Shown piece by piece: positions 7,774 through 47,467 of a stretch of 64,000 nt of DNA (positions within the stretch are counted from its first letter, which is position 1; every line of letters starts with the position of its first letter). The stretch comes from Candidatus Micrarchaeia archaeon (GTDB lineage: Archaea; Micrarchaeota; Micrarchaeia; CABMEP01): NCBI GenBank assembly GCA_038880755.1, contig JAVZRC010000001.1:8791-72790 (forward strand), read 5' to 3'. The notes under the pieces are model-generated. The model did no database searches, was not told the origin of the DNA, and was given only the letters and a program-made list of their open reading frames with translations. Position numbers and translations under genes: made by a program.

Positions 7774-7884
7774 TGGGCCGGCGGAGATTTGAACTCCGGA
7801 CCTACAGTTATCCTAAACCAGTTCTGAATATATCAGAACGCGCCATATAAGACTGTCGCTCTGACCTGGCTGAGCTACCGGCCC
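7774..7884 (-). tRNA. intron-containing tRNA, anticodon UAU (tRNA-Ile reading AUA) if the 36-nt intron sits at the canonical 37/38 position
   Basis: Reverse complement folds as GGGCCGG-UA-GCUC/GAGC D-arm, anticodon stem ACAGU…ACUGU, loop CUUAUA[36-nt intron]A, and T-arm CGGAG-UUCAAAU-CUCCG. Acceptor pairs with CCGGCCC, discriminator A, no encoded CCA. Confidence 0.7.
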
Positions 7885-24996: not shown

Positions 24997-25854
24997 TTAA
25001 GGAAATCCTCTTAATCCATTTAGTCTCTGCTCAAAAATTTTTACATTCGTATTAAGTAGTTTAATTTCCCATTCTAATTTTTCATTAATAGATTTTATTA
25101 TTTTCTTTTTCTCTTTATTCGTTAAATCAAAATAAGATGTTATCTTATCCTTATTTTTGCTAAAATTATCATTGAGATATACAAATAGATTATGTAGTTT
25201 TTTATATTCTTCTAACGTTTTGTAAAATTTTTCCTTTCTATCTTTAATTTTTAATGAGTCTTCATATCGAGCTTTCCGATAATCGTTGTTTATTTCTCCT
25301 TCGCCACTAAATGAATCTCCAGAATAAAGTTCAATTCTTAATATAACATTATCATGGTATAACTCTAATAAATTAACATTATAAGGATCGTCTTTTAGGA
25401 GTTCTTTTATTTCTTTATCACTTTCTGTTAATATCGATTCTTTTTCTTCAACATCATTAATTATTGTCAAAGCATCTGCTTTTTTCATTTTCAGTTTTTC
25501 TAAAACAAAAAACACAGCTTTATTTTTAGTCTCTTCATATATCCTTTCCAATTCAGCAATACTTTCATCAATCTCTACTATTATCTCTGCAGAATTCTTT
25601 ATAAATGAATTGCCATAACTATAGTAATAACTTTTTATTTTCTTTAAATCTTCTTTACTACACACATTCTCCAAGCTTTTTTCTATTTTTTCATAATTTG
25701 TAAATGGATAAATACTATAAAATGCATTTGCTTTGGTCGGTGTCATAGATAAACCTAAAGCCAAAATCCCTTCTGCTAATAGTTTTCCAATCCGTTTTTT
25801 GAAATCAAGCTTTTTTTCAGGTTTTATCTCCTTAATTTTCTTTTCATCAGACAC
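24997..25854 (-). CDS. hypothetical N-terminally anchored/secreted protein
   Basis: Basic N-terminus then hydrophobic LLAEGILALGLSM. Remainder is K/E/N-rich and helical. Confidence 0.4.
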   Translation of the reverse strand: MSDEKKIKEIKPEKKLDFKKRIGKLLAEGILALGLSMTPTKANAFYSIYPFTNYEKIEKSLENVCSKEDLKKIKSYYYSYGNSFIKNSAEIIVEIDESIAELERIYEETKNKAVFFVLEKLKMKKADALTIINDVEEKESILTESDKEIKELLKDDPYNVNLLELYHDNVILRIELYSGDSFSGEGEINNDYRKARYEDSLKIKDRKEKFYKTLEEYKKLHNLFVYLNDNFSKNKDKITSYFDLTNKEKKKIIKSINEKLEWEIKLLNTNVKIFEQRLNGLRGFP

Positions 25855-25929: not shown

Positions 25930-28900
25930 TTATTTATTTTTGACTCCAATCTCAGTAACTTTGCCTTTTGATACTCCACTATAAAAAGCTTCAATCCACT
26001 CTCTTTTTTCTTCTTCCATGTTCTTCTCATATTCTTTTTTGCCGGAATAAATGTAGATTATAGTTCCAGTTCCAAAAATCTTATTTTCGTTGAGTTTTTT
26101 CTTTAATACTTCTGGCTTAATTCCATCTTCACTAAAGTGTTTATATTCAATTTCGTCTATTAAACTTACGAATGGGTTATATCTGTTAGTTTGTATGTGT
26201 TTCTTTATCTCTTCTTCTGTTCTCTCTTTACCTGCTGCTATATTTGTATTCACATTATTAAGATGATTTAGGAGTTCATTGTACTTAGTTCTTTCTTCAT
26301 GCGAATGTACTTCTTTAGATTTATAGGAAGTTTCTAGCTTTCGTATTTCTTCGTGAATCTGGTTACTTAATGAATCTAATTTCCCAACTGTTGTAAATGT
26401 TTGATTATTGTCTTTGGGAATGTAGATTTCAGAATTGTATTTTTCGAAATCTTCTTTTACTTTACTTAAACCTTCCCGTAACTTGATTTCACTTTCATTT
26501 AATGTATATGGTGGTGATAAGAGTTGAAGTGCTTTATTTAGCTCTTTTTGTGCTTCATCAAGCTTGTAACGAGTGTATCCATTTCCGGAATTTATACTAC
26601 TGGTGGTTTCTGCAGCAGATTTTATTTCTGCAGCCTCAAATGTTTTTTTCATTATCATTGCGGAATCTACAGTTAAAGAACTTACAGGAGATAATGAAGG
26701 AGCATTTTTAGCAACTTCATATATCTCTTTCATTAATATCAGATTATCTCTTTCTTTTCTAATGAATTCTGTTCCTTTTATTACTCTTTCTAATTCAATT
26801 TTTGCAGACTCAATCTGGTTTTCTTTAGATTTAACTTCGTCATAACCTGGGGTACCAATTGTTGGATTTCTATATTTTATATAGAGTTCCTCTAGTTCTT
26901 TTTGAAGGTTTTTTATTTTGTTATTTATTATTTCTTCACCCTTTAAAACAGTAAATAATACTGTTTCTGGTGTAACATCTGTTTTCTCTCCATTAACTAT
27001 CTTTACGGCTCTTTCTAATCCTTTTGAGTTAAGTTTCTTTTCAAGATCTAATGTATCTATTATGTTTTTAGTGAGTTTCTCTTTATTCTCTGGCAATTCA
27101 TAATTCATATTAGAAAATGCAATTATTTTTTCATTTGGATTCGTTATCTTTCTTCCTTTTTCATCAGTCAACTCTAATTGGTCTAAAAATCTATGGATAG
27201 TTCCTATCTGTATGTCTTTTATAATATAATTAAATGCAGCTATTTTATTAGAATCGTCTTTAATTAATTCTAGGTTTTCTTTTAGAACAGTATTAATCTT
27301 ACTTGGATCACCACTTTCATATGCTTCATAAATTCGTTGAACATTAATCCCATAAGCATCAGCCAATTCTTTCACGTCTCTCAATTTGGACTTAAATTCA
27401 TCAACTCCATAGTTACTATAGTAGTCTTTCGCATTCATTTTTCTTGCTATTATCAAAGATTCTTTGTCAAAACCTATTAATGCTCCATTGCTACTAATTC
27501 TATTAAGTAGTCTTTCAGTATCTTCTCTAAGAATCCTTTCTAAGTTTCTTATTAATTTATTTGTATCTTCTACACTTAAATCAGATTTTTGTTTTATAAG
27601 TCTAGATTTTTGTTCATCACTTAGGTAAACAGATTTTAGTTGTTCATTGATTCTTTGAATTCTACCATCTAGATACGTTCTAATATCTTGTAATTCTGTA
27701 GGTTTTGCTCCTTTCTTTAACCCCTCTATTACATTTCTTAACATTTCTAAATTTGCAACTTCATCTTTAGCGATCGCATTCAATATTTTCATCTTTCCCT
27801 TCTCAGTCAATCCATACACATCTATATCTTCTTTTTGTAAACTAAAACCATATGTTGCTTTCACTTTATTATTTATCTCTTCTTGTTCTTCTTTGGTATA
27901 CATCTCTTTTGATGGTCTTCTGATCTCAGGTATTGAAGCATAAGATAAACTCCAAGGTCTTACACCCATTCTACCTAATGAGAGAAAGAACGTTTGTCTG
28001 AATAAATCTAATAATGATGAACTTGATACTTTATCTGATGCAGTAACAACTCTTATTTCACCAAAAACTCCTTTAACAACTCTTCTATTTCCACCCAATA
28101 CATCTTCCATTTCTTGTGTAGTTAGTTTTCCTTTTGCAGCTTGTTCCGCTTTCTTCAATTTTTCTAATTCTTCTTTATTCAATCTTCTGGAAGTAGTACT
28201 CATTAATACTTTTCCAGGTATAGAGGATATCTTTTGCACTATTCCAAAGGTTCCTTTTGCCTTTTTTTCTTCTTCAATTGAGGGAGTGAGGAACTTTCCA
28301 AGTTTGTATGCACCGGTTGAAGTAGCAGATTTTAATGCACTCTGGGCTGCACCTACAGCAGTACCTAATAATGTAGTTCTTTGCCTTGTAGTGACTCTAC
28401 CTCCAGAGATTCCTGGTGCTTTAAATGCAACTCTTGAAAAGTCAAATAAACCAAACGGATTCTTTCCAGATGCAAACATCGCAGCAACAAGAAGTGCAAA
28501 TATTATGAAAAGAGGAGCACAAGCAGTCAAACTTATTAACGGAAATACTCCAGGTACATATCTTTCTGTTTTCGCACTTCCCATAAATGGTTCTTTCGGT
28601 TTCGGTGTAAATGTAGCGGTTATTGAATATGAGATCTTTCTAGGATCTGTCGAATTTTCTAATAAGGGTGGTTGAGTGTATAGTGTAAAAGAAACACTCC
28701 CGTTTTCATTTGTATTTACTACAAAAGGTGCTGATTCATCTGAAAGGACAAACTCACCTGCTGCATTTTTTGTTACAAATTTACTTCCTATTACTAATTC
28801 TATAGTTATATTTTTGTTTGCAAGAGGTATTCTATTTTGTGTTTTCCTATCAATTGCATTAAGCTGTATATTGACATCAATTGTATTATCAGTTATACCT

Positions 28901-29046
28901 ACAGGTATATTTATTGGATGCCTTGAATGCTGAATTATAATTTCAGTTGGATTTTTATCTACAGGACAGATATTAACTGTGAAAACTAGAGGGATTGCAA
29001 AGAGGACAAGTATGATAATTAATCCAGTTACTTTCATTTGTATCAA
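25930..29046 (-). CDS. large (1038 aa) bitopic coiled-coil protein, signal peptide plus internal TM
   Basis: Signal peptide LIIILVLFAIPLVFTV, about 150-aa N-terminal domain, TM LISLTACAPLFIIFALLVAAMF, then about 850 aa of heptad-rich coiled coil. Confidence 0.6.
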   Translation of the reverse strand: MIQMKVTGLIIILVLFAIPLVFTVNICPVDKNPTEIIIQHSRHPINIPVGITDNTIDVNIQLNAIDRKTQNRIPLANKNITIELVIGSKFVTKNAAGEFVLSDESAPFVVNTNENGSVSFTLYTQPPLLENSTDPRKISYSITATFTPKPKEPFMGSAKTERYVPGVFPLISLTACAPLFIIFALLVAAMFASGKNPFGLFDFSRVAFKAPGISGGRVTTRQRTTLLGTAVGAAQSALKSATSTGAYKLGKFLTPSIEEEKKAKGTFGIVQKISSIPGKVLMSTTSRRLNKEELEKLKKAEQAAKGKLTTQEMEDVLGGNRRVVKGVFGEIRVVTASDKVSSSSLLDLFRQTFFLSLGRMGVRPWSLSYASIPEIRRPSKEMYTKEEQEEINNKVKATYGFSLQKEDIDVYGLTEKGKMKILNAIAKDEVANLEMLRNVIEGLKKGAKPTELQDIRTYLDGRIQRINEQLKSVYLSDEQKSRLIKQKSDLSVEDTNKLIRNLERILREDTERLLNRISSNGALIGFDKESLIIARKMNAKDYYSNYGVDEFKSKLRDVKELADAYGINVQRIYEAYESGDPSKINTVLKENLELIKDDSNKIAAFNYIIKDIQIGTIHRFLDQLELTDEKGRKITNPNEKIIAFSNMNYELPENKEKLTKNIIDTLDLEKKLNSKGLERAVKIVNGEKTDVTPETVLFTVLKGEEIINNKIKNLQKELEELYIKYRNPTIGTPGYDEVKSKENQIESAKIELERVIKGTEFIRKERDNLILMKEIYEVAKNAPSLSPVSSLTVDSAMIMKKTFEAAEIKSAAETTSSINSGNGYTRYKLDEAQKELNKALQLLSPPYTLNESEIKLREGLSKVKEDFEKYNSEIYIPKDNNQTFTTVGKLDSLSNQIHEEIRKLETSYKSKEVHSHEERTKYNELLNHLNNVNTNIAAGKERTEEEIKKHIQTNRYNPFVSLIDEIEYKHFSEDGIKPEVLKKKLNENKIFGTGTIIYIYSGKKEYEKNMEEEKREWIEAFYSGVSKGKVTEIGVKNK

Positions 29047-29094
29047 TACATTATATAAGTTTGAATTTTAAATCTTTTTATTAATATAATATCA

Positions 29095-30723
29095 ATGAAG
29101 AAATCTAATAAAATAGATATAAAATTTAATTATTCATTATTCATTCTGTTTAGCTTAATTATTTTTGCTTACGCCCAAACGCAGACACAAAGCCAACAGA
29201 CATGGCAGCAGTATGTTCCTAATTGGTTTCCTTTGTTTGCAATTGCAATTGGAATAGGATTTGGAATAACTGGACTTGCATTCATGTTAGCAAGAACCTT
29301 TCAACTTACACAGATGGAAACATGGGCCAGAGCAGAATTGTTTGAGGTAACTGGAAGTGCATTCTTAGTTTTAATAATACTAATAACATTGGGAGTAATT
29401 GACAATCTATTCATTGCGGCTGTAGGAATGAAGCCAACAGATCTTTCACTTGATTTCACAAATAGGATTTCAGAAAGATTGATGGATAGGTATATTGATT
29501 CGGTTAAGCTAGGTGCAGCAGTAGGTATGCTTTCAGGTCCACCAGTCCAATATTTAGGAGCAACATCTTCCACATCAGACAAAAGCGGTCAGACAAATCA
29601 AGGAAGCGGAACTGAAGTTACAGGAGGTAATGATGGTAAACCAGTGCAGTCTCCAGAGACACCAAATAGAATCTGGATGGTAGCCATTAAATCTTTTAAA
29701 ATGAGTTACCTAACATTTTATGCTGCAGATGTTTTTAATGGTCATTTTAACTTAGTTCAATCTATAGCTTTAACTTCTTTAGGAGTTTCTATCTTTTCCC
29801 ATATCTTATTGAATTTTATAAATAGTATTGCAATTCCATTTTTAATTCCATTTGGATTGTTTTTGAGCATATTTGCATTCACAAGGAAAATGGGAAGAAC
29901 CATAATTGCGTTTGGGGTGGGGCTCTACCTTTTTGTTCCGCTTTCCATAATAATTGCTCAAACAATGTATGATTCTGCATTTAAGCCGAATTCTTCCATC
30001 CCAGCGATAAGTAGACCTTCAGGAAATTCAAATATAGATCGTTTTACAACAGAGGTTTTTGCTTATGAAGCTTTAGATCTGCTTTCGCAATTAGCAATTG
30101 CCCAATATGCAATTTTAACCAATGCAGATACCTCACTACTGCCAAGTTGTGTAACCGGAGCAATTTCCCTTTCTTCAATATGTGGGATAGCTGCTCCAGC
30201 TTGTGCTCCAGTATTTACAATGATATGTTCTATGCTTGGTGGCATGTCTGACGTGGGAAGCGGGTCAGATAATATAAATACAATACAAAACGTTTTTTCT
30301 GTTTTGAGAGTTGCTTCTTTAAGTACGATTCTTGATGTACCAATCCCTGAACAATTAGGTTCAGCAAGTGCAACTATTGTAAGTCTAGCTGTAGCAGGTG
30401 GTGCATCCACATTTATATTCCATTTAATTCCATCAAATGTGATAACTATAAATTACATTATGCCAGTTCTGCAGCAATTAATGAACTTTGGGCAGTACGA
30501 AGTATCAGTTTTGACAGCTTCTCTATATGCAAACATGAATCAATACCTAGCAATCAAGTTAACAAACATCACGCTTGCATACACTCCATATGTAATGCAA
30601 GATGCAGTTCCTGCATTGCTTATTCCATTTATAATCATATTTACAGTTATAACTGGCATAAGGTCAATTTCTCCAGCTATTGGAGGGGAAGTTCAAATAC
30701 TGGGAGTTTCGGAACTTATATGA
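29095..30723 (+). CDS. paralogue 1 of 6: polytopic membrane protein of novel family (C-terminal GGEVQILGVSELI)
   Basis: Signal peptide, TM1-(ETWARAELFE)-TM2 hairpin, conserved helix FTRKMGRTIIAFGVGLYLFVPL and conserved C-terminal tail. Confidence 0.65.
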   Translation: MKKSNKIDIKFNYSLFILFSLIIFAYAQTQTQSQQTWQQYVPNWFPLFAIAIGIGFGITGLAFMLARTFQLTQMETWARAELFEVTGSAFLVLIILITLGVIDNLFIAAVGMKPTDLSLDFTNRISERLMDRYIDSVKLGAAVGMLSGPPVQYLGATSSTSDKSGQTNQGSGTEVTGGNDGKPVQSPETPNRIWMVAIKSFKMSYLTFYAADVFNGHFNLVQSIALTSLGVSIFSHILLNFINSIAIPFLIPFGLFLSIFAFTRKMGRTIIAFGVGLYLFVPLSIIIAQTMYDSAFKPNSSIPAISRPSGNSNIDRFTTEVFAYEALDLLSQLAIAQYAILTNADTSLLPSCVTGAISLSSICGIAAPACAPVFTMICSMLGGMSDVGSGSDNINTIQNVFSVLRVASLSTILDVPIPEQLGSASATIVSLAVAGGASTFIFHLIPSNVITINYIMPVLQQLMNFGQYEVSVLTASLYANMNQYLAIKLTNITLAYTPYVMQDAVPALLIPFIIIFTVITGIRSISPAIGGEVQILGVSELI

Positions 30724-30746
30724 AATAATACAAGGAGTGTTAGACC

Positions 30747-31619
30747 ATGGGATTTAGCGATATACCGACATGTTTAAGTACATGCACATTATCATCAGAG
30801 TATTCAAACTGGCTTCCTTTAGCTGGTATGATAATATTCATAGTTCTGCTTGGAATATCTATAGGCTTTATGATATCTAGATTTCTAAATAGACGCGACT
30901 GGGAGGCAATGATAAGATTAGAATTATACCATCTGTCAGTTGCAGTTATTTGGATCGGATTAATCGCAATAGTTGCCAATATTACATGTTCATTGTCATG
31001 TTCAATAACTAAAGATGAGAGTCCATTCACATCTTCAATTAATTACCTTAACACAATTAATTCAAAATTAAGCAGTATTGTAAATTCCTTGTATGAGAAA
31101 GCAAAGAATATAAGGATAGAAACAGCATATTATGACGCATTTGCCAATTTCATGTATTCGCCAAAGGCAGGATGTGATAATGTTGCATCAGTATATGAGA
31201 ATTTTTCATTCATGTTATCTCCATTCGTGGCCAGTCTTTTGATTCAGCAGTATGCTTTAATTTTTATAAGCCAGATAGCATTTACTTATCTACTTCCTAT
31301 TGGAATAATTCTTCGCTTGATTCCAGGATTTAAAGACGCATCTTCATATGTTATTGCTATCGCATTTGCATTTTATATCATCTTGCCTTTAACCTATGTT
31401 TTCGCGCAAAAGGCAACGGAAGGAATTTCGCTATCTTTGATTGATACAGATGCAAGTGATTGTGTATCTGCTAATGAAATTCAAACTATATTAACTGATG
31501 TTGGATTGCTTTTGCCACAGGCAGTATTCTTCCCTGCTTTAAGTAGCATTATTACAATTGGAGCAGCAAGAGCGCTTGCAGAGATATTTAAGTATGATTT
31601 CATTGAACTAAGGGGATAA
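30747..31619 (+). CDS. paralogue 2 of 6: polytopic membrane protein of novel family
   Basis: TM1-(RRDWEAMIRLEL)-TM2 hairpin. Motif LPIGIILRLIPGFKDASSYVIAIAFAFYIILPL. Confidence 0.6.
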   Translation: MGFSDIPTCLSTCTLSSEYSNWLPLAGMIIFIVLLGISIGFMISRFLNRRDWEAMIRLELYHLSVAVIWIGLIAIVANITCSLSCSITKDESPFTSSINYLNTINSKLSSIVNSLYEKAKNIRIETAYYDAFANFMYSPKAGCDNVASVYENFSFMLSPFVASLLIQQYALIFISQIAFTYLLPIGIILRLIPGFKDASSYVIAIAFAFYIILPLTYVFAQKATEGISLSLIDTDASDCVSANEIQTILTDVGLLLPQAVFFPALSSIITIGAARALAEIFKYDFIELRG

Positions 31620-31620
31620 A

Positions 31621-32808
31621 TTGGTATTAGACAAAATAAATAATAAAGTTAAAGGATACACTGTAAAGATAGCTATGGTAGTGTTTGTTCTAATTTTATG
31701 TATCTCATTTTCATTTGCAGCTCAAGATGTTTTCGGTTTCCATACAGATGTTGATTGGATTCTAATTGCATATTTAGTTATACTTATTGTTGCACTACTA
31801 TTGGGAATCGCATTTATGATATCTAAAGTATTTGCAATGCATGAGTTAGAGGCATGGACAAGAGAAGAGGCAATGAATCTTATTATATCAATTGCAATTC
31901 TCGTTTTATTTACTGCATTTGTTGGTGTAGCTGAACAAATAGCAAATTCTTTATCTAAAGACGTTCTTTCTTCAAGTGTTTCTGCAAGTGCTTCAGGAAA
32001 CATAAGTTACTGGCAATACATACCAAATGAGGGCAGGTGGAAAACGATAGAAACTTCCAACCCATCCTGTGAATATCCATGTTACATATATATGGCAAGA
32101 GGCTTCCTAGGTTCTTTGTATGAAAAATATGGAGAATCTTTAAAGAGTATTGCCCAATATTATTTCGTTTCAGTGTTCTATTCCACTCAATCTATAGGGT
32201 CTGGCGTTGACTTTACCTGGGGCAAATTTAAATTTGAATTTGGAATTGGATTCCCGTTGAATGCAGGTTTAACTATATATAACAATATACTAGCAACTGT
32301 AGTAAGCGAGTATTTGAAAATAATTACAGCTATAAAAATGCAGGAAATTGCTTTAGTTTATCTTTCATCTCTTGCAGGCATGTTCTTCATACTTGGAATA
32401 ATCTCCCGTTCAGTTTGGTTTTTAAGAAAATTCGGCGGTCTGTTTGTAGCTGCAGGCATAGGTTTATATTTAATATTTCCAATGGTTTATGTTTTAAGTT
32501 GGTACACGATTGACAGATCTGCAATAATATTTGAAGTGGATCTTCCACAACCAGTATCTTCCGATGATCCACTTTCATTCTTTACTGGCGGGATTGGAGG
32601 TTTAGGAAATGTTGATTTGTTATTTACAAGATATAATGATAATGGATCTGTAATTTCAATTGGAATGTTAGATTCGTTAGGAAGATCATATATTCCAATA
32701 ATAGTAGTGCCAATCCTTGCAATTTTTACCACTCTTGGATTTATAAGGCATTTCTCACCAATGATAGGTGGAGATCCTGAAATAGCAGGTCTTACAAGAA
32801 TCATTTAA
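31621..32808 (+). CDS. paralogue 3 of 6: polytopic membrane protein of novel family (C-terminal IGGDPEIAGLTRII)
   Basis: Motif ISRSVWFLRKFGGLFVAAGIGLYLIFPMVYVL. The track start is a TTG. An ATG at 31675 gives a clean signal peptide. Confidence 0.6.
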   Translation: MVLDKINNKVKGYTVKIAMVVFVLILCISFSFAAQDVFGFHTDVDWILIAYLVILIVALLLGIAFMISKVFAMHELEAWTREEAMNLIISIAILVLFTAFVGVAEQIANSLSKDVLSSSVSASASGNISYWQYIPNEGRWKTIETSNPSCEYPCYIYMARGFLGSLYEKYGESLKSIAQYYFVSVFYSTQSIGSGVDFTWGKFKFEFGIGFPLNAGLTIYNNILATVVSEYLKIITAIKMQEIALVYLSSLAGMFFILGIISRSVWFLRKFGGLFVAAGIGLYLIFPMVYVLSWYTIDRSAIIFEVDLPQPVSSDDPLSFFTGGIGGLGNVDLLFTRYNDNGSVISIGMLDSLGRSYIPIIVVPILAIFTTLGFIRHFSPMIGGDPEIAGLTRII

Positions 32809-32822
32809 GCATATGAAAGTAA

Positions 32823-33971
32823 GTGGATATCATGATATTTAGTGTAAGTGAGTATATGAAAAATAATGAAACAAAGAAGAAAAACGCAAGTTCAATATTA
32901 GATCTATTTTCAAGAAGCTTAATCATGTTTTTCATATTAATTTCAATATCCTTTGCTGCAACAGAATGCGGTTACTTTGGAACATATCTTTACAACAATG
33001 TATGTGTTCCTGACTTATTAGTCAATTTGAGTACGATATTAATTTTAATTGGAATCATTATAGGCTCAATATTTTATGGACTGGGCATTGCATTAGAGCA
33101 TACAAGAATTAAAGAATGGTCTAAAGACTTCCTTTATCAACTACTTGGTACAGCAGTAATTCTTTCTGTTTATCTAGGTCTTGTAGCTTCTTTAAACAGT
33201 TTCGCACCTGCAATTTATAATTCAAATCTTGCATATCCTGCTGAAAGCACTGTTCGTTCACTTTCAGATACTAAATGGATAAATGTCCAGTCACATTCTG
33301 AAAAATATGTGGGCTGTCTTTTAAGTTACACTAAAGATGCAACATTGGAAATAGTAAGAGTATCCTCTTCATTGTCCTCTTTAGCGTCCATCTCTATTCA
33401 ATTAATTTCTGGTTCATTCAGCAACTTTTATCCATTATTTCCAACTGGAGGAGGTCTCACTTCTATAATGTCAGTTCTAATAGGAGCACTTGCAGCAACC
33501 ATTATCCAGCTTAAGCTTCAATTTGAAATACTAAAGCTAAATTCTGCATTGTTTAGTATTGTGCTTCCACTTGGATTGATATTGAGATCATTTCCATATA
33601 CTAGAGGGGCAGGAGCAGCGATGATAGCAATAACATTTGGATTTACAATTTTTCTGCCTATATTTTATTTGATCATAGAGGACATAGGTTATCATTTTTA
33701 CCAAAAAGATGTATGTTCAATACATCCGCCATCAATAGGATTTTTCCAGATGGTAGATATGGGAATAAAAATTGCGCAAAAGGGAGCGGTTTCAACTCTT
33801 CAAAAATATTTTGGAGTCGGGGGCGATTTTGAAAGTCTGACAACAGTTTTATTAATACAGGCTACCATTCTTCCATTTGTAGCTTATTTAGTAGTTCTTA
33901 ATATAATTAAGAGGCTTGCAGAGGTGCTAGGTGGAGAGATAGACTTCAGCACATTGGTGAGATTGATATGA
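32823..33971 (+). CDS. paralogue 4 of 6: polytopic membrane protein of novel family (C-terminal LGGEIDFSTLVRLI)
   Basis: Motif LPLGLILRSFPYTRGAGAAMIAITFGFTIFLPIFYL. The start may instead be the ATG at 32856. Confidence 0.65.
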   Translation: MDIMIFSVSEYMKNNETKKKNASSILDLFSRSLIMFFILISISFAATECGYFGTYLYNNVCVPDLLVNLSTILILIGIIIGSIFYGLGIALEHTRIKEWSKDFLYQLLGTAVILSVYLGLVASLNSFAPAIYNSNLAYPAESTVRSLSDTKWINVQSHSEKYVGCLLSYTKDATLEIVRVSSSLSSLASISIQLISGSFSNFYPLFPTGGGLTSIMSVLIGALAATIIQLKLQFEILKLNSALFSIVLPLGLILRSFPYTRGAGAAMIAITFGFTIFLPIFYLIIEDIGYHFYQKDVCSIHPPSIGFFQMVDMGIKIAQKGAVSTLQKYFGVGGDFESLTTVLLIQATILPFVAYLVVLNIIKRLAEVLGGEIDFSTLVRLI

Positions 33972-35104
33972 AAAAGGGATTCAAACATATATTGTATTTA
34001 GCTTTGCTGCTTCTCATTATTCTACTTAATCCTGTGCATGCTCAAACAAATACTAACCAAGATAATGTGCCGAATGGTTGTGAAGTTGCATTGCTTTTGG
34101 ATTTTGGAAATCAAAGCAACAGTGCTATAGGTGTAGAGCAGAATTGGAAATCTTTGTCCTTTATTGGATTATTGGTTTCTTTATTTCTGTTAATTTTTGC
34201 GTATTTAATAGGTAAATCTTTAGATTCCCCACAACTTATAGCTAGAGCTAAGACAGATATGATTCAGGTAGTTGTGACTGCAATAATGCTTGGAGTTCTT
34301 TATTCAATATTGCTCTTTATTTGTAGCATTGATGCATCTCAATTTGGATTTAATTTTACTTCATTTTTTGATGGAGCAAGAATGTATCTTGAATACTCAA
34401 GAGCATCGGCGCTTAACGCTTACCTTAAATGTACAAATGCAATGATGATCATAACTGGATTGTCTACATTCAATATAAACAATCCAAACTTTATAGATTT
34501 GGGTGCATTTCTACATATAGGGGTTTACTTTAAACCTTTTGCAGGTTATGGAATTACAATAGGCGCTCTTAACTGGTTCTCCAGTCTGGTACAACTTTCA
34601 TATTCATTAATTACGGGATATATTGTGGTTCTAGATGCAATTCAGCTGTATTTCCTTAATCTACTTCTTCCAGCAGGAGTAGTATTGAGATGTTTTTCGC
34701 CAACAAGAGATTTAGGCGGTGTGCTAATTGCAATAAGTGTAGGCTTATTCTTTTTCTATCCATTACTGTTTTCATTTTCATATATGATTATTGGTCAGCC
34801 AGATCCAAATGTAAGATTGCCAGATATGGATTGGGAAAGTGAGATAAATAGTGCTGTAGCTAAATCTGTAGCACTATCATCAGTTCCTTTAGGCAGTCTT
34901 GTAACTATCTTCAATTCATTGTTCGGCAAAGGCGGAGAAGCAATAGATAGACTGAACGAGGCATATATTGCGACAGGCAGTGTGATTTTATATGTTTTTA
35001 TATTACCTGCAATTAATTGGATTATCTTAGTAGCGATCATCAGAGAATTAAGCAAGGCATTAGGCCAGGAAGTAGATATATCTGGTTTGGCAAGAATGAT
35101 CTGA
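33968..35104 (+). CDS. paralogue 5 of 6: polytopic membrane protein of novel family (C-terminal LGQEVDISGLARMI)
   Basis: Motif LLPAGVVLRCFSPTRDLGGVLIAISVGLFFFYPL. A 4-bp ATGA overlap with paralogue 4 suggests translational coupling. Confidence 0.65.
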   Translation: MKKGFKHILYLALLLLIILLNPVHAQTNTNQDNVPNGCEVALLLDFGNQSNSAIGVEQNWKSLSFIGLLVSLFLLIFAYLIGKSLDSPQLIARAKTDMIQVVVTAIMLGVLYSILLFICSIDASQFGFNFTSFFDGARMYLEYSRASALNAYLKCTNAMMIITGLSTFNINNPNFIDLGAFLHIGVYFKPFAGYGITIGALNWFSSLVQLSYSLITGYIVVLDAIQLYFLNLLLPAGVVLRCFSPTRDLGGVLIAISVGLFFFYPLLFSFSYMIIGQPDPNVRLPDMDWESEINSAVAKSVALSSVPLGSLVTIFNSLFGKGGEAIDRLNEAYIATGSVILYVFILPAINWIILVAIIRELSKALGQEVDISGLARMI

Positions 35105-35118
35105 GATACGGTGAAATT

Positions 35119-36366
35119 ATGTTTGTAAATCCGCAAAAAAGTAAAATAAAATCAATTCACTCATTATTTCTACAGATAATACTATTTTTACTTATTTTAA
35201 ATCAGGTGAGTGCACTTTCATGCAGCATTACAGATCAAAATTGCCCAAGCGGACAGATATGTGATAAGGGAGAATGCAGGGAATGTCTCACAAGTGCAGA
35301 ATGCTGGAGCAAAACTCTAATTAGATCTACTCCAATTGGAGGAATCTCACCTTGGGTTAGCATATCTATCATAGTTTTGCTTATATCGCTTTTAGGTGTT
35401 GCAATATTTTATATGGTAGCTTATGCATTCCAATCTGATCAGTACAAGAGAATCGCATTTGCTGAATTAATGCAGGTGTTAGCTTCATTTCTGTTGGTTG
35501 CATTTCTATTTGGATTTGAAATATTTGAAACAGATATGCTTACAAGATTAGAAAATACTTCAGGAGCAATCACAGCTGCATTAGTTCTTCAATCTCAAGG
35601 TACCTCACCCACTGCTGCACTTTCTGGAGATGTACAGATCAATCCATTTGATGTTTCATATGCATTTCTTAGGAATATGATAAATTGCGTTCAAAACAAA
35701 TTAAAAACAACATATGAGAACTCAAAAGCAATACAAACAATAATTAATTTGAATATAGATGTACAAGTGATTACACCTGGAAAGGTGAAATTTTCAGTTC
35801 CAAACCCTCTTGCATTCACATCTCTATCAGAAACTGCAGCAAAGTATGAATTCCAAGCAAATGAACTTACTTGGCTTATGATATTTCTTTACGCCCAGAT
35901 AGCAGTTCTGAAATTTATAGAAACATCGATGTTCACGGTCTTTTTGCCAATAGGGTTAATACTTAGAGCATTTCCACCTACTAGAGGGGCAGGAGCTGTG
36001 CTGGTTGCGATAGCAATAGGATTTTATCTTATCTATCCTTTGACATTCACTTTATTATATACTGGAACACCTAAGCAGATAGAAGGATGCAATCTTCAAG
36101 TTGCATTTGATTACTCTCAATTGGAAAAGACATGCCCATTAAACATTGGTGCGACCACTCAGATACTTTCTTCTGCATCTGATCTTGCTGCAACATTAGA
36201 TGCAGCTGTACCTCAATTACAAGCAGGGACATCTTCTATTAGATTCACCACATTCTTGTATATGCTTATTTCATTAGGTGTCACATTTATATTTGTCCGT
36301 TCATTGTCAAGCATATTAGGTGCAGACATTTCAGAGATAGGAAGAACAATGTTAAGATTATTATAA
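35119..36366 (+). CDS. paralogue 6 of 6: polytopic membrane protein of novel family with N-terminal Cys-rich EGF-like module
   Basis: Motif LPIGLILRAFPPTRGAGAVLVAIAIGFYLIYPL. N-terminal CSITDQNCPSGQICDKGECRECLTSAEC. Start set to the ATG at 35119, because the track start overlaps paralogue 5. Confidence 0.65.
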   Translation: MFVNPQKSKIKSIHSLFLQIILFLLILNQVSALSCSITDQNCPSGQICDKGECRECLTSAECWSKTLIRSTPIGGISPWVSISIIVLLISLLGVAIFYMVAYAFQSDQYKRIAFAELMQVLASFLLVAFLFGFEIFETDMLTRLENTSGAITAALVLQSQGTSPTAALSGDVQINPFDVSYAFLRNMINCVQNKLKTTYENSKAIQTIINLNIDVQVITPGKVKFSVPNPLAFTSLSETAAKYEFQANELTWLMIFLYAQIAVLKFIETSMFTVFLPIGLILRAFPPTRGAGAVLVAIAIGFYLIYPLTFTLLYTGTPKQIEGCNLQVAFDYSQLEKTCPLNIGATTQILSSASDLAATLDAAVPQLQAGTSSIRFTTFLYMLISLGVTFIFVRSLSSILGADISEIGRTMLRLL

Positions 36367-36388: not shown

Positions 36389-37165
36389 ATGAATAAGAAA
36401 AAGAAATTCGAATCTGACGTTTCATCAGTTCAAAACAATGCTAAAAAAGATTTCATTAAGCAGTTTACTTTTTATTTTGCAATTATATTTGGACTAATGA
36501 TAATAGCCTACGTTCTTGCAATTCTTCCCTCTTTGTTGGCAAAAAATTCTCCAAAAGTTGGACAAACAGAATTGTCTGCAGAAGACTATTCTTGCAATTC
36601 AAGCGTCACAAAAGATTCCATTGAGTACAATATTAAATATCTAATTATAAAAAACGGAACGCAAATTGGAACTCTAGAATATAATTTTTCTAAAACTGAT
36701 TCTGGATTCATTAAAAAAGAAATAGGCATGATAGATTTCACAAAGTTAGAAGATTATTCTCAAGCTATTAAAAATTCAAACATTTCACTTTTATCATCTG
36801 CTATTACAATAATAGAGACTATTTATGATTCAGATTATAATTGTAAAAACTCTTCCTATATATTGATTTTAGGAAACTCAACTTATAATTATTCTGGAGA
36901 GTGCAGCCCCCCAGACATTCCTTTCAAAATATGCAAGCAAAATATGAAAGAACTATTAAATGAAAAGATAGAGGCAGGAGCGTTTACATTCAATACAATA
37001 AAATATGAATATACACACTCACAAACTATCGAAGGTCTAAAAGAAACGCAAATTTTATATCTTTGGTTTTCAGATCTTCCATTCCCAATAAAAGTAGGTG
37101 ATTCAGAGTTTTATTTGATCCTTTCAAACTATTCAAAAAACAATATCAGCCATGAAAATAAATAG
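36389..37165 (+). CDS. hypothetical single-pass membrane protein with Cys pairs, part of the surface cluster
   Basis: TM FTFYFAIIFGLMIIAYVLAILPSLL, then a soluble Cys-containing domain. Confidence 0.45.
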   Translation: MNKKKKFESDVSSVQNNAKKDFIKQFTFYFAIIFGLMIIAYVLAILPSLLAKNSPKVGQTELSAEDYSCNSSVTKDSIEYNIKYLIIKNGTQIGTLEYNFSKTDSGFIKKEIGMIDFTKLEDYSQAIKNSNISLLSSAITIIETIYDSDYNCKNSSYILILGNSTYNYSGECSPPDIPFKICKQNMKELLNEKIEAGAFTFNTIKYEYTHSQTIEGLKETQILYLWFSDLPFPIKVGDSEFYLILSNYSKNNISHENK

Positions 37166-37250: not shown

Positions 37251-40200
37251 ATGAATAAATCTGAAATGAAGAAAGAAAGTAAAATCAAGTCTTCATCTTT
37301 TTCAAATATGATGGTTTTTCTGATCATCTTTTCTTTGATATTTATTCTTGTCTCTGGTTGTATTGAATTAAAGCCAAGAGAAGGGATAAGTACTACAGTT
37401 CCAATTACGGTAACGAAAGGAAGCGATGTATGTGCCGGTTATAATGAATCCACATGCGGCGCTTTCTTGAAGGAAAAGAGAACTGCAATTTCTGATTATA
37501 TTTGTAAAGGACCAATCGGCCCTTCTTATTCAAAGGTGGACGAAGTAACTTATTCTCTTTCAGCTGAAAAAGGTTGGAGTTGTGAGGAAACAAAAACATA
37601 TCTAGTTTTAGCAGGAAATAACTATACAATGTCAGGTTCAGGCCATATGGGGAATCCACATGGTGGTAGCATAACATTACAAGATTCAAGAAATGTAGTA
37701 TCACCAATATCTTATGGAATGAATAATCTAACTTTGAAATGTGATGTAGGCGTATTTGTTAGTGTTTCAAAAGGTAAATATCAGGGGGGTTCATTTACCT
37801 TGAGATTTGATGGTTCATCTGACATCTTATCTCCAGGAGACCGTTTTGACGGACAATACTCATTTTTCGTACTACCATTAACTTTAACTCCAGAAAATAA
37901 CAAATTAATTGGTAATCTTAGTTTTTCAGGTACGTGGGTAGTTACCGGAAAAGAATACGGTAGTTGGCCAAACAAAAAACACAAATCAAGCATGGATGTT
38001 TCTTACTCTATTTCTTGTACTCCCTTTGCAAGCTACAATGTTAATTGGAGATGTAAAAATGCATATACCTCAGAATCATATGATTTTGTAAATTGCAGCT
38101 ATGATGAATTTTCTACATTCCAGGGTGGAAGGACATTCCTTGATAACAATACTCCATTCAGCAAGCTTAGCAACTATATTCAATCATATTATGGAACTTA
38201 CTCGTACAATCCAATTACTGAAGAAACAAAGCCAGCTGGAAAAATTCAAGTTCCATTCTTTATGTTAGGCCAAGGTCCATCCTTCCAGGATTATGAAGAG
38301 GCAAAGAAACTATGTGTACCATGGAAAGAAACCGTAGTGAACATCTCACTTGGAAATACGACATTTGATCCTCCATTTATGACAATCCTCTCAGGTTTAG
38401 AGCTCTGTATCGATAATAAAGACAATAAGAGACATGATATAACGATAATCAATCTTCAGGATCAAAGTATAGTAAGACAATACATTCTTCAGCCAACGCA
38501 ATCTGCATGTTATATACCATACGAAGGCTTTTATCACATAAAAGATTCAAATGGAGACTATGCTTATTTATCAGTACTAAGCGCAAAAGATACTACTCAG
38601 ATTTATATAGGAAATAACATAGTTCCGAATTATACAGTGGTTAATGCAGATGGATTTGTTAATTTTAGCCTAATTGAAAGAAAAGAGCATAACTTGAGTA
38701 TGACAAGTGTGAATAGATTTGATGATTATAGCTATGATAATAATTTTACTCTCAATCTTTCAAATCCGGTTGAAACAATAAGAGCGCCACAAACAGGAGA
38801 GTATAGGATTAATGATATCACAACAGATAAAACTGGTTATTTATTCGTTCAGTCTCCGCTTCAGAGATTCTTGTTTAAGAGAGATGGAACAATTGATCCA
38901 GGATATGAAATATACAGACCGCTTGGAGATTTGATTTGTTTTAGAAGCGAAACTGAAGGTTTAAGCATTTCAATTTCAAGATACACAGAAACTGAAAATG
39001 GATATGAATGGATATGGCTGACTAATGAAACATTGTCTACAAATTCATATTGCTGTATTCAAGGTGCGTTACCTGGCAAGTATCAAGGAATTACCTCAGA
39101 TGGAAGAGTTGCAAATTGGACGATAGGAAATGGAAAGCCTTCCGCAACAGTTTCTATTCAGCCGATTGGTTTTGAACCTGAAGAAGTAGAAAGTCCGCCA
39201 GGAACAAAGATATGTTGGATTAATCCATCAGCAATCTCAAGAAATGTTATAACAAAATCATCATCAGGAAAGACATTCTTCTCAGGCCAAATTCCACCAT
39301 TCTCAGATAATGTTTGTTGGCCAACTATGAACAAGACAGATTCATATGTAACTACATTTGTACCTAATTTAGATGTGAGGAACATTGTGAATATTAAAGA
39401 GGTTGATTCAAGAAACATCCAAATACTCTCAGGTGGCGCAGGCTTTGATACTATCTCATTAGTTGTAAAGCCTGGCTCTCAAATATGTTGGATTAATAAT
39501 GATAATAAGAATCATACATTAAAAGATGAGAGTGGAAACTACATACTCTTAGCTCCATCGCAAACAAACTGTATAGATAAGTCTACTATGCAGGAAGGAA
39601 ATATTTATACGCGCCAGCTGGATGGAAAGGAGATTTATTCAGATGTTGGAGTTATAGATGGTAAAGGTGCAATCCTGTCTTCAAGAGGTCCTATTCCATT
39701 TTCACTATTTGTAAATCCACCAAATGTTAATATGACTCAATCAGGAGAATTGTATATCACCTCTCCTTCGTATTTCAAGATTATAAATAAACAGAGTGTT
39801 CCATCTGAGTTGTATGAGATTTCCTATATTACTTTATTAGCTAATTCAACTGGATTGGCAGATATAGTGAAAACCGAAAGTGAAACTATTATAATTAATT
39901 CTCCGGTTAAGAGCTATACAAAGCTATTGCTTTATGTGGAAAATACTGATGATAAAAACCACACTATAAGAGTGGAATCAAACGGAGATGAAATCAATAT
40001 TCTACCTAATTCATTTTATTTATTTGAAATTAGTCAAAGTACAGTATTAACTGATTTAACTGTTAAAGAAAATTTGACTAGAAGTGGAACTACAAATCAA
40101 ACTATAATAGATGCATTGTCACAGATCCCAATAAAGATATTGGGTCCTCCAGAGATAAAATTAAGTAAATCAGGTTCTAATGGAGATTCATTAACATTGT

Positions 40201-43200
40201 CTGCTCCTATTGAACCTTATACTTCAATACTTTATGAAAATAATACAAACAAGACAATTGTAATCACTTTTGCAGATACAAAGGAATTCATACTAGAGAA
40301 CCCATTGAACAATCAAACATTAGACCTTCCAACTCAGGTTATTCATGGAGATTTATCCTCTCAAATTCTTTATGATATGAGAAAGTATGCGGATGAGGGA
40401 GCAATGTCATTGCTTATTCCTTCATTCCATAATGTAACAGTAAAGATACATTCCTCTGTTTTCTCTCCATCTGAAGCATTAATACCTGCAGGAAGCACAA
40501 TTACATTTACTAATAAGGATGTAATAGACCATACAATTGATTTAATTAAAAATGAAAGCGATATCATCTCTTCAAGATCGTTTACCCTTCTACCATTACA
40601 ATCAAATTCAACTTCAGATACACCAAAGAATACAACATTCACGTTCTATGATCAGCTTTCCAATATGAAAGGAAACATTACAACAGTTGCTTATGATGCA
40701 AATATTGGAATAATATCAACACCGATTTATCCAGAATCTGGAATGGTTGCAGTTGGTGGACCTGTTAAATTCAATAACTATGATCCTGATTCAGATTATA
40801 AGATTGAGATTAAACTTACAGATGAACTAAACGCTGATTACACATATATCTTAAATCTTCCTAAATATACAAATGGGATTCCAGGAGTTGCAACATGGAT
40901 TCCAGATAAGGCTGGAAATGCCACTTATATAGTTAGAAATAATACAATTGTTGTTGGCACTGGTGAAATAGTTGTCAAGAATTCAATAATTAATATTTCT
41001 ATTAGAAATGGGGAGTTTGAAACAAAATCAATTGCGGTTGATCATGATAGCAAGGTGTGCTTTAATCCAGACTCACCAAGAAACATCTCAATTACTAATT
41101 TAGATACCGGTGAAAAGATAGCTGAAAGAACTATCTATCCATTAGGTGTTCAAGCAACAGATTCAGGTAGTGTTTGTAAAAGAATTTATAACTGTTCTGT
41201 AAAGCAACAGACTGGAGATTATGGATGCATAGGAATAGTGAATGAATCAGATCCTTCTACATATTGTTCTTATTATTTAATTAATCCATCAATAGCATGT
41301 AAATTAGATAATAATATTTCATGTGTTGTTAAAGACCAGTATTCAAATGATTTAGAGTGTACAACTGACTATTCAAAAGATACGCAACCCGCAGTGCCAG
41401 GCATTCAACCACAGTGTTTATTCCAAGCAAGATTAGATGGTGGTGCATGCAACGGTGGTTCAGTAATAAAGAATTCTTCCTTAGCTTCAATAATTAATTG
41501 CTCAGTTTCAACTACAGGTCTTCTCCAGTTTAACTATTTTTCAGGTAAGGAAAAGACAGATGTATCAAATTTATTATGTAACGTCCAAAAATCAGGTAAT
41601 ATTATAACATGTAGCCCAACAGGTTTATATCCAGATATAGGTTGTATTAATAATTCAATCAATGATCTATATTGCTATTATACACCTTCACCATTAACAT
41701 CCGCAGAAAAGTCTAATCCGTATACATTAACTGATAATCGTTTCTGTGCAGTAACAACTGCTCAAAGAACTGAAAGATATTATACAACATATGCATGTGA
41801 TATAGGGTACGATGGTAAGTGTACATGTCCAACTAATAAAATGTGTGGTGCCTTGCCATGTGATGGAAGCAATGTTCTTGCAAGTATGTATTATGATCGT
41901 TATCAAAGCAGTTCTATGTTTGGAAGGAAAAGTTATAATTGTTCGAATGGAAAGTTAGTTAATGTTCTCTTGAAAGAAGGGACATATACATTTAATTTCT
42001 CAGGATTAGATAATCCATATTTTTCAATATATCTTAAACCTAATTTTGGATTTAAGGCATGCAAATGCTATGCTGCCAACCAAAGGACAGTCACATACGC
42101 TAATTCGTGTAGTGTTAAAACTGGGGGAAGTTCAATCACTCCATTTCCAAGCAATTGTACTTTACAGTCTGAGAAATGTGTGTTCTCTTCTCCATCAGTA
42201 TTTTTATGCAGCAATGAAGAAAACTGTCCATGTAAATTCGGATGCGGAAAGAAGATCAACTATTCAACACTAGGAAACATAAATTGTGTTTCAACCCCAG
42301 GGGGTTGTAATGTAATATCAAATTATAATGCTGATAATGGTGATTACTGTAAATATGCGTATGCTCAAACATGCACACCTAAACAAGGATATGAAGATAA
42401 AGTATCATGCAAACTTGATGGAATATCATGTTTGATATCAGAAGGAAAGAAAATAAAAGACGACGGTTCGTATTGCAGTTTGAATTTATTTTCATGTGAA
42501 CCAGCTTACTCGGGCGTTGATTGCAGTTTTGATGCATCAACACAATCATGTAAGGTTGGTTCTATCGAGCAATTCTGTTTCACACCAGCTTCAACTTATG
42601 TTGTTGAGGATGTAGATACTGGAAATATTATGATAGTTGAAGGTTATGACAGATATACGCCATTAGAGATAGATATTCAAAAATCTGTGTTCACTCCTTC
42701 CTTTGTTGCATCATCTCCACTGAGCGAAGTATGTTTCCAAAGCCTCGATGGAAAAATGCACAGAGTTTCAGTTCCAGAGGCAGTAAAGAGTGATGGTTTT
42801 ATTGATGTTTATTCAGATAGGCAAACATGTCTTAATTTCCCATACAATACAGAGCCATGGACTGTAAGGTTGCAGGACAAGCCAGATGTTGCAGCAGGCA
42901 TTAAATCAATAAAGCAGGATATTGAAGTAGTTGTCAAGTCACAGATGTTTGATCCTTCTGATCTGGTTCTCAGACCTAATACATCTATTACATTTATTAA
43001 TACAGATGCAGAATCACATCAACTTAACAAAGCAATACCATCTACAAATTTTGTTAAACTTATTTTACAAAATAGCATTTTAACAAGCGATTCATTCTTT
43101 TACAATATATTAAAAACAGAGTGGATAGATACAATCGAATGTAAGAATGATTCAGACTGTCCAGAAGGTTCATTCTGCGATGTAGAAAAAAGATGCCACG

Positions 43201-47053: not shown

Positions 47054-47082
47054 TCAATCATCATTGTTTTTTTCAATAGAAT

Positions 47083-47201
47083 AAGAATGATAAAGTCAGC
47101 AGCAATGCATCTTCCCCTCCAACAGGAGAGTACCAATAACATCGTGAACCGGCTTAGCTTCCGAGTTCGGAATGGGATCGGGCGTTTCCCGGTTCCTATG
47201 G
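47083..47201 (-). rRNA. rrf: 5S ribosomal RNA (stand-alone)
   Basis: Reverse complement reads GUCAGCGGCCAUAGGAACCGGGAAACGCCCGAUCCCAUUCCGAACUCGGAAGCUAAGCCGGUUCACGAUGUU…GCUGCUGAC. This has the canonical 5S helix I pairing and the loop C 'CCGAAC' and 'GGAAGUUAAGC'-type motifs. Confidence 0.8.
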
Positions 47202-47467
47202 CCGCTGACAATATAATATAGTGTGTAATATATTTAAATGTTTCTGAAATATTATAGCTATAAAACAAGCTGTTTTTATTTGAAGGTGAGGTTATTTCAA
47301 AAATAATAAGGTATGGAAAGGATCTTGCTATAATCATACCAGAAGAATTAGTAAAAAAGCTTGATCTAAGACCAGACACACCAATTAGAATATATGAGAT
47401 AACTGCGGGAACTATAGCAATTGAGAAAGTAAAACTTCTTCCTTTATCCGAATCAGACATCAACATT

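Follow-up and report, generated by a model that had tools for sequence, protein, structure and literature searches.

In a 64,000-nucleotide stretch of contig JAVZRC010000001.1 from a Candidatus Micrarchaeia archaeon (the window), the open reading frame (ORF) at 25930 to 29046 on the minus strand encodes a large membrane protein, QXW80_01680, that is best read from sequence comparisons as the signature subunit of an undescribed nine-gene, chromosomal, Micrarchaeota-specific envelope module. The proposed module further comprises a giant surface protein, one small bitopic protein, and six polytopic membrane proteins that are paralogues of each other. DPANN archaea, the Micrarchaeota included, live in dependence on physical contact with their hosts, and almost none of the genes that underlie their envelope and contact structures are known. 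A conserved module that contains only membrane and surface proteins, with no relative in curated families or solved structures and with six fixed paralogues, is thus a concrete candidate for a contact structure. The module is apparently undescribed and, among the genomes covered here, was found only in those of the Micrarchaeota type.

Linkage of QXW80_01680 homologues to the paralogue array

A scan of one genome per GTDB species for the transmembrane (TM) and juxtamembrane motif of QXW80_01680 yielded 29 loci, all in metagenome-assembled genomes (MAGs) of the Micrarchaeota type that are labeled Micrarchaeia, Anstonellales, Burarchaeum, or, in one instance, 'ainarchaeum'. The presence of the array at these loci was evaluated by our own ORF calling and hmmsearch with a profile of the paralogues. 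Four of the 29 loci were too short or truncated to judge, and one of these (L020) still has a giant gene upstream. The array adjoins the motif protein in 22 of the 25 informative loci, as well as in five metagenome loci (L001 to L003, L006, and L007).

Two layouts were found. In the first, as in the window, the gene for the motif protein is divergent from the six paralogues. In the second, the genes are co-directional, and the paralogues are followed by a giant protein of 1400 to 1700 amino acids and then by the motif protein. Downstream of the latter are genes that we take, by sequence resemblance, to encode a PadR-like regulator and Pelota. Close homologues of QXW80_01680 keep the divergent layout, and their housekeeping flanks are syntenic too (L001 to L003).

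This synteny could mean that QXW80_01680 is functionally unrelated to the array and that their adjacency is simply conserved order in a compact genome. The syntenic flanks in L001 to L003 and L005 favor that explanation, as do three distant motif proteins that stand without an array. However, two distant homologues, P0027 (E = 2e-17) and P0029 (TM motif only), are likewise encoded divergently from such an array at loci with different flanks (L006 and L007), the linkage is kept through the complete rearrangement of order and strand in the second layout, and in the one MAG with two copies of the motif protein, each copy lies beside its own array (L011 and L038). Inheritance of gene order as the sole cause is therefore very improbable. 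Survival of the linkage through rearrangement of gene order and strand points instead to a functional module, and these comparisons provide good support for a functional tie between QXW80_01680 and the array.

A family defined by its transmembrane helix

When 1.84 billion representative proteins were searched exhaustively with HMMER, only 76 relatives were returned at E ≤ 0.001. Eight of these covered the full length, about a dozen aligned only to the first 220 to 390 positions of the profile, and most of the remainder matched only positions ∼170 to 320, which correspond to the TM helix and the part that follows it. The distant members are 250 to 2143 amino acids long, with unrelated tails (up to about 1650 amino acids) and, often, unrelated ectodomains. 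An earlier reading of the window that was made from its letters alone (the sequence-only reading) had allowed that the homologues might be ubiquitous proteins not linked to this cluster; with so few relatives, and with the array at nearly all informative loci, this is not the case.

The family is characterized by the motif C-x-P-L..(I/V)F(G/A)LL.AAM(Y/F)A(S/T)G(R/K)NPF(G).FDFS, in which C, P, L, A, G, and P do not vary among 26 diverse members. QXW80_01680 carries all of the invariant residues. In the same 26 members residues 181 to 201 are conserved at almost every position and on all helix faces, without helical periodicity. A TM helix conserved on every face would be expected to be surrounded by protein rather than lipid. 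Across the wider family, nearly all members have a Cys at mature position 4. When the window protein was compared with six divergent full-length homologues, identity was 75% in the ectodomain and 82% in the TM/juxtamembrane segment, which together take in residues 21 to 220, but only 20 to 27% over most of the tail, apart from an island at residues 356 to 420 (47%). Conserved islands in the tail include G.RPWSL.YA, YTKEEQEE, D.YGLTE.GK, NGALIGFDK, and YGI.

Searches with QXW80_01680 gave nothing above noise in Pfam, NCBIfam, and PHROGs, and no SMC-, EzrA-, or tape-measure-like family, all of which had been suggested as possible homologues, was matched in these collections. Pfam scans of 36 distant family members revealed no recurrent tail domain, only single matches in single members. 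Sequence and profile searches of PDB yielded only marginal coiled-coil or helical-bundle matches, which were treated as compositional, and a Foldseek search with the predicted structure had best E values of 0.28 in PDB and 0.047 in BFVD, with insignificant matches to tape-measure and SMC proteins. As judged from these comparisons, the family defined by a signal peptide, a Cys near the mature N terminus, and the TM/juxtamembrane motif is an undescribed Micrarchaeota family, and the window protein has all of these features.

Two motif carriers from loci that have no array nearby, at 9374-14824 of L017 and 6013-11472 of L018, are 1816 to 1819 amino acids long and have a Cys4 zinc-ribbon-like C terminus. 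L018 comes from a Burarchaeum MAG and L017 from an unclassified uncultured archaeon. It is possible that they represent a free-standing branch of the family.

Anatomy and membrane topology

The ORF proposed in the sequence-only reading exists and is conserved. Its length of 1038 amino acids is counted from a TTG at 29046; the NCBI model QXW80_01680 (P0001), which is 100% identical, begins three codons in, at an ATG at 29037, and has 1035 amino acids. The regions of the protein, as predicted from hydropathy, conservation, and an AlphaFold2 (AF2) model whose confidence is given as the predicted local distance difference test (pLDDT), are as follows.

25930..29046, minus strand: whole ORF of QXW80_01680, with the stop codon at 25930-25932
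28978..29046, minus strand: predicted signal peptide, residues 1-23 (hydropathy and orthologue comparison)
28543..28977, minus strand: predicted ectodomain, residues 24-168, beta-rich, with 6 strands in the AF2 model (low pLDDT)
28378..28542, minus strand: TM helix and juxtamembrane family signature C-A-P-LFIIFALLVAAMFASGKNPFGLFDFSRVAFKAP..RVTTR (conservation across 26 diverse members)
25933..28377, minus strand: predicted cytoplasmic tail, residues 224-1038, all-alpha, multi-helix, fast-evolving, and indel-rich
26188..26970, minus strand: long-helix subregion of the tail, residues 690-950 of P0001 (AF2 and profile matches)

The two hydrophobic segments found by hydropathy (residues ∼1 to 23 and ∼166 to 198) and a beta-rich domain in the AF2 model agree with the signal peptide, single TM helix, and small N-terminal domain that had been recognized earlier. 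In orthologues the last residue of the first hydrophobic segment is A or S, after which comes a conserved mature N terminus, VNICP.DK.PTE, as expected of a cleaved Sec signal peptide. The ectodomain of ∼145 amino acids is beta-rich in the model, at low confidence, and probably folds as an Ig-like sandwich. Three N-glycosylation sequons lie in its 142 amino acids versus two in the 841 amino acids of the tail, a density ten times greater, and the charge that follows the TM helix is +6/-1 (K, R, K, R, R, and R versus one D), as read from the sequence. The signal peptide, positive-inside charge, and sequon enrichment together indicate a type-I membrane protein with a small ectodomain outside the cell and a tail of ∼840 residues in the cytoplasm. 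A domain common to the ectodomain and the giant surface protein was considered and dropped, because no similarity was found between them; the ectodomain had no similarity to PDB entries either.

The tail is not a continuous coiled coil

The sequence-only reading took the ∼850 residues after the TM helix to be a single unbroken coiled coil that would make a rod or tether of ∼100 nm anchored in the membrane. The NKEELEKLKKAEQ stretch to which it pointed is present at about residue 290. Some features of the tail favor such a rod. The AF2 model makes about 70% of the tail helical (582 of 836 residues), the composition is rich in K, E, L, and I, and there are weak PDB profile matches to SMC6 arms, chemoreceptor hairpins, and myosin rod over residues ∼690 to 950 (E = 4e-4 to 1e-2 overall, and 4e-4 to 3e-3 for SMC6 arms and chemoreceptors). 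Nevertheless, after residue 200 there are about 45 Gly and 17 Pro, and no run free of both exceeds 59 amino acids.

Heptad content was estimated with a crude 28-residue score that rewards hydrophobic residues at positions a and d and polar residues elsewhere, penalizes Pro and Gly, and takes its calibration from tropomyosin and 30 shuffled versions of the tail. None of the tail residues (0%) reached the 10th percentile of tropomyosin, and the 34% of the tail that exceeded the 95th percentile of its own shuffles was divided among 8 separate segments of 28 to 69 amino acids. The score is able to detect coiled coils in this family, since it flagged stretches of 100 to 142 amino acids in the tropomyosin range in two distant members (P0026 and P0027). 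Heptad content is not a conserved feature of the family and amounted to 0 to 12% of the tail in 19 of the 21 members tested.

The AF2 model, which was built on an alignment of 12 sequences, places residues 380 to 1020 at pLDDT 80 to 95, with about 77% of them helical. It divides the tail into 33 separate helices, of which 5 have at least 28 amino acids and the longest has 50 (∼7.5 nm, pLDDT around 90). The abundance of K, E, L, and I, which had been taken as a sign of heptads, is the proteome background of a low-GC genome (roughly 32% GC; 28 to 39% in 2-kb bins of the window): K+E, L+I, and P+G account for 23.7%, 17.8%, and 7.8% of the tail versus 20.1%, 18.7%, and 9.4% of eleven other window proteins (pooled housekeeping). 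In AT-rich archaeal genomes, K/E/L/I-rich helical proteins can be mistaken by eye for coiled coils.

In view of the Pro/Gly distribution, the heptad score, and the model, a continuous rod is hardly credible and the picture of a 100-nm stalk or tether is to be dropped; these same three lines of evidence amount in substance to the low coiled-coil probability that the sequence-only reading had named as telling against it. Furthermore, the tail is probably cytoplasmic and, if so, could not serve as an extracellular stalk. What survives of the membrane-anchored rod beside the array is a membrane-anchored partner of the array; the rod does not. A spectrin-like or tandem-repeat tail was also considered and was dropped because self-BLAST revealed no internal repeats.

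Residues 690 to 950 are, in the AF2 model, the only part of the tail with coiled-coil or helical-bundle character, with successive helices of 33, 46, 50, 23, 30, and 38 amino acids. These residues might pair between subunits as a dimeric or trimeric coiled coil or a hairpin bundle, giving a homo-oligomeric signaling or tethering stalk of 10 to 20 nm under the membrane, an arrangement that would be compatible with the envelope module proposed here. Consistent with such a stalk, five of the helices have 30 to 50 amino acids, heptad segments above the 95th percentile of the shuffles lie at 694-727, 736-770, 847-876, and 885-914, it is precisely here that the matches to methyl-accepting chemotaxis protein (MCP) hairpins and SMC6 arms lie, P0026 and P0027 have their tropomyosin-range stretches, and a monomer model is blind to intermolecular coiled coils. 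However, this is the least conserved part of the protein (20% identity), most family members have the low heptad content given above, and Pfam detected no HAMP, MCPsignal, or SMC domains. The E values of the PDB matches are marginal and typical of compositional similarity, and the matches to SMC6, chemoreceptors, and myosin are read as such. Thus, a segmented stalk of this kind seems unlikely.

The array, the seventh gene, and the giant surface protein

The first gene of the array starts at 29095 on the plus strand, which bears out the divergent transcription reported earlier, and the six genes are true paralogues, 19 to 24% identical to the first array protein. The remaining features of the module are listed below.

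29095..36366, plus strand: six paralogous polytopic all-alpha membrane proteins, at 29095-30723, 30747-31619, 31621-32808, 32823-33971, 33968-35104, and 35017-36366
C-terminal signatures of the array, in gene order: 1, GGEVQILGVSELI; 2, KYDFIELRG; 3, GGD.EIAGLTRII; 4, GGEIDFSTLVRLI; 5, GQEVDISGLARMI; 6, GADISEIGR.M.RLL
36389..37165, plus strand: seventh module gene, a small bitopic protein of 258 amino acids with a C-terminal ..LPFPI.V....L.SY motif
37251..45626, plus strand: giant Cys-rich surface protein of 2791 amino acids, with a signal peptide ending in LVSGC (lipobox-like)

The paralogues share a TM pattern, a central hairpin (LLP.GLILR.FP.TR.AG...IAI..G.YL..PL), and a C-terminal tail (...R.LS..LGGE.D...L.R.I). 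Their order is fixed, and each of the six places in it has a C-terminal signature that is specific to that place and recurs in the window, L001, L002, L006, and L007. The seventh gene is also present in L001, L002, L006, and L007. No match to the array proteins of the window and of distant loci was found in Pfam, NCBIfam, or PHROGs, or in sequence and profile searches of PDB; the seventh gene had nothing above noise in the same three family collections. A profile search with the six paralogues in a set of 5.8 billion proteins returned only unnamed Micrarchaeota proteins. Paralogue 1, modeled with AF2 from an alignment of 17 sequences (pLDDT 64), is all-alpha and has unusually long helices of 30 to 81 residues, which, if the model is correct, must reach well beyond the membrane. 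A Foldseek search of PDB with this model gave nothing significant, the best matches being TTYH and AhlB at E = 0.2 to 0.4. As mechanically called, the ORFs of paralogues 5 and 6 share 88 nucleotides; the true start of paralogue 6 is probably a later Met, and its listed N terminus may be too long.

Giant proteins of 1400 to 3700 amino acids are encoded in most linked loci whose flank reaches that position, including the window, L001, and L006. The giant protein of the window has weak cupredoxin-like segments and dozens of Cys-rich repeats (DUF7107-like). The end of its signal peptide fits the published definition of a lipobox (PMC12462473), and the giants of the co-directional loci have lipobox-like ends as well (LMGC, FAGC, MFGC, and LAGC). 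Identification of the giant as the Micrarchaeota S-layer protein was rejected, because none of the S-layer families of Pfam matched it, not even PF05123, the one that identifies the S-layer protein of Micrarchaeum harzensis (10.1101/2021.04.28.441871).

The properties of the array and of the TM helix raise the possibility of a stator- or channel-like machine, in which the invariant helix would sit at the center of a ring of the six paralogues, as MotB, ExbD, and GldM do inside MotA, ExbB, and GldL, and would transmit ion-driven or conformational work between ectodomain and tail. The helix is conserved on all faces and has small-xxx-small residues (G181, A185, A186, A189, and G191), its polytopic, all-alpha partners have helices as long as 81 amino acids that would extend from the membrane, and the lack of an ATPase in the locus leaves room for a device driven by membrane potential. 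However, an acidic residue in the TM helix is a hallmark of such stators, and residues 173 to 191 contain no D or E in any of the 26 members, which sets them apart from the 5:2-type stators (MotAB, ExbBD, TolQR, and GldLM). In addition, the array proteins have no match to MotA_ExbB or any other Pfam family and no fold match better than E = 0.2. A machine of this kind is quite improbable.

Divergent spacer and candidate promoter

29047..29094: divergent intergenic spacer between QXW80_01680 and the first array gene

The spacer that the sequence-only reading had described as a 48-bp region shared with the array has that length when counted from the TTG of QXW80_01680 and is 57 nucleotides long from the ATG. 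An AT-rich block of ∼45 nucleotides, TTATATT..AAAAGATTTAAAATTCAA..TATA, is kept in six loci (29038-29094 of the window, L001, L002, L003, L011, and L012), even though the encoded tails are only 20 to 27% identical; otherwise, spacer length varies from 28 to 130 nucleotides across loci. The center of the block lies ∼25 nucleotides upstream of the ATG of the first array gene and, in the window, also ∼24 nucleotides from the TTG of QXW80_01680. This conservation and position suggest a compact bidirectional TATA-type promoter that would give leaderless or near-leaderless mRNAs.

Proposed role

QXW80_01680 is, on balance, probably a TM anchor or scaffold subunit of an envelope complex. Our confidence in the anatomy and the linkage is much higher than in this overall picture, and our confidence in the role is much lower. 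The ectodomain, TM helix, and juxtamembrane motif would dock the protein into a hetero-oligomeric membrane complex built of the paralogues, and the tail, with its many short helices and ∼260 amino acids of 30- to 50-residue helices, would serve as a cytoplasmic platform or scaffold under that complex. The complex would hold or position the giant surface protein at the cell envelope, where it could plausibly serve cell-cell contact in host-dependent archaea.

Several observations weigh against this picture. The distant motif-bearing proteins of L017, L018, and L023 have no array within 6 to 9 kb, and the neighborhood of TBP, L21e, Rpo4, KsgA, LysRS, and Pus10 is syntenic among closer relatives, so that shared ancestry accounts for some of the linkage signal. 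Over residues 1 to 380, the part proposed to dock, AF2 confidence stays below 50, and the heptad score is home-made, not a published predictor. Moreover, no ATPase or other energizing component was found in or next to the module in either layout, and no other recognizable enzyme is among its members.

A more elaborate version of the anchor or scaffold role, which we think unlikely, would have the six paralogues form a hetero-hexameric membrane ring around the TM helix of QXW80_01680. Together with the bitopic protein and the giant lipoprotein, the ring would be a Micrarchaeota-specific, envelope-spanning machine by which these host-dependent DPANN archaea contact their host or take up host material, with the tail as its internal platform.

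QXW80_01680 is the easiest handle on the module, as its invariant TM motif finds the module in genomes and its conserved ectodomain is a natural antigen for immuno-electron microscopy in cultivated Micrarchaeota. Even if the module proves to be no more than an ordinary envelope scaffold, the misreading of the tail as a coiled coil is put right.

Genomic setting

Contig JAVZXS010000004.1 of isolate JZ-3_201705_bins_117 (locus L010) contains the identical region. Genes for archaeal L21e, Rpo4/RpoF, and a TBP-like protein lie directly downstream of QXW80_01680, and class-I LysRS, Pus10, KsgA, Cdc6, aIF2-gamma, and a lone 5S rRNA are encoded elsewhere in the window. An ORF of 285 amino acids at 24997-25854 (minus strand), 75 nucleotides downstream of QXW80_01680 on the same strand, begins with a signal or TM segment and is K/E-rich in the remainder. 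It has no counterpart at that position in L001 or L002, where L002 has a TPR protein (L003 has a 459-amino-acid gene there), and is thus probably not part of the conserved module. Neither Pfam nor NCBIfam scans matched this ORF, and an ORF of 460 amino acids had no match in an NCBIfam scan.

A full-length RelA/SpoT-type protein with HD_4, RelA_SpoT, TGS, and ACT domains (E down to 1e-42) is encoded at 54272-56230 (minus strand). To our knowledge, long RSH enzymes are unusual in archaea, and this gene may be a bacterial acquisition. A tRNA at 7774-7884 (minus strand), which was detected with Rfam (59 bits across 111 nucleotides) and not called by ARAGORN, is probably an intron-containing archaeal tRNA. 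The 5S rRNA gene at 47094-47209 (minus strand), ∼1.2 kb from the Cdc6/Orc1 gene at 48398-49471, is the only rRNA match in the window. Two mechanical ORFs adjoin or overlap this gene, 45671-47053 and 47020-47475, of which the second is probably spurious.

Comparison with known systems

QXW80_01680 belongs to none of the known classes against which it was tested: long coiled-coil rods, SMC proteins, EzrA, tape-measure proteins, MCPs, and 5:2 stators. With SMC arms, myosin rod, and tropomyosin it shares K/E-rich helical segments and a marginal match to SMC6 arms (E = 4e-4), but it lacks a continuous heptad register, has frequent breakers, and is predicted to have helices of no more than 50 amino acids; no SMC_N, hinge, or P-loop domains were found with Pfam and NCBIfam. 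EzrA of the Bacillus divisome has a similar single N-proximal TM helix and a long all-alpha cytoplasmic region made of helices of tens of residues and not of one rod. In EzrA, however, the N-terminal TM helix is joined to spectrin-like helical repeats without a signal peptide or ectodomain, whereas QXW80_01680 has both of the latter, no Pfam or NCBIfam match, and no internal repeats, and comes from another phylum and another genomic context.

MCPs have the same order of ectodomain, TM helix, and long helical cytoplasmic part, and the MCP hairpin match (E = 2e-3) covers residues ∼690 to 950. In contrast to these receptors, QXW80_01680 has no HAMP or MCPsignal domain (Pfam), has one TM helix after a cleaved signal peptide, and has no che genes nearby, and the matching region is its least conserved part. 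Phage tape-measure families gave no match in PHROGs or Pfam, and the best tape-measure match in BFVD had an E value of 0.34; the locus is flanked by TBP, L21e, Rpo4, 5S rRNA, and Cdc6, not by tail genes.

No description of the module was found in the openly available literature, including papers on the S layer and the cultivation of Micrarchaeum harzensis. Cryo-electron tomography papers on Micrarchaeota and Nanobdellota co-cultures describe nanotubes and attachment organelles, and a term search of these papers found no comparable gene cluster or symbiont-side genes.

In the Sulfolobales, SlaA and SlaB are likewise a very large surface protein and a single-pass membrane protein, encoded together, of which the second could anchor the first. 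They differ from the module in that the TM helix of SlaB is C-terminal and its coiled coil is extracellular, whereas the long part of QXW80_01680 is predicted to be cytoplasmic; furthermore, SlaAB has no six-paralogue array, and the giant protein of the window lacks an S-layer Pfam match. A second anchoring protein has been postulated for the S layer of Micrarchaeum harzensis (10.1101/2021.04.28.441871).

Although QXW80_01680 is archaeal and there is no homology, so that the resemblance is one of logic only, the proposed module also recalls the attachment organelle of Mycoplasma pneumoniae (P1 adhesin complex and the cytoskeletal proteins HMW1-3), in which a minimal cell that depends on its host unites a long helical protein of the cytoplasm with small membrane proteins and a giant adhesin at its surface.

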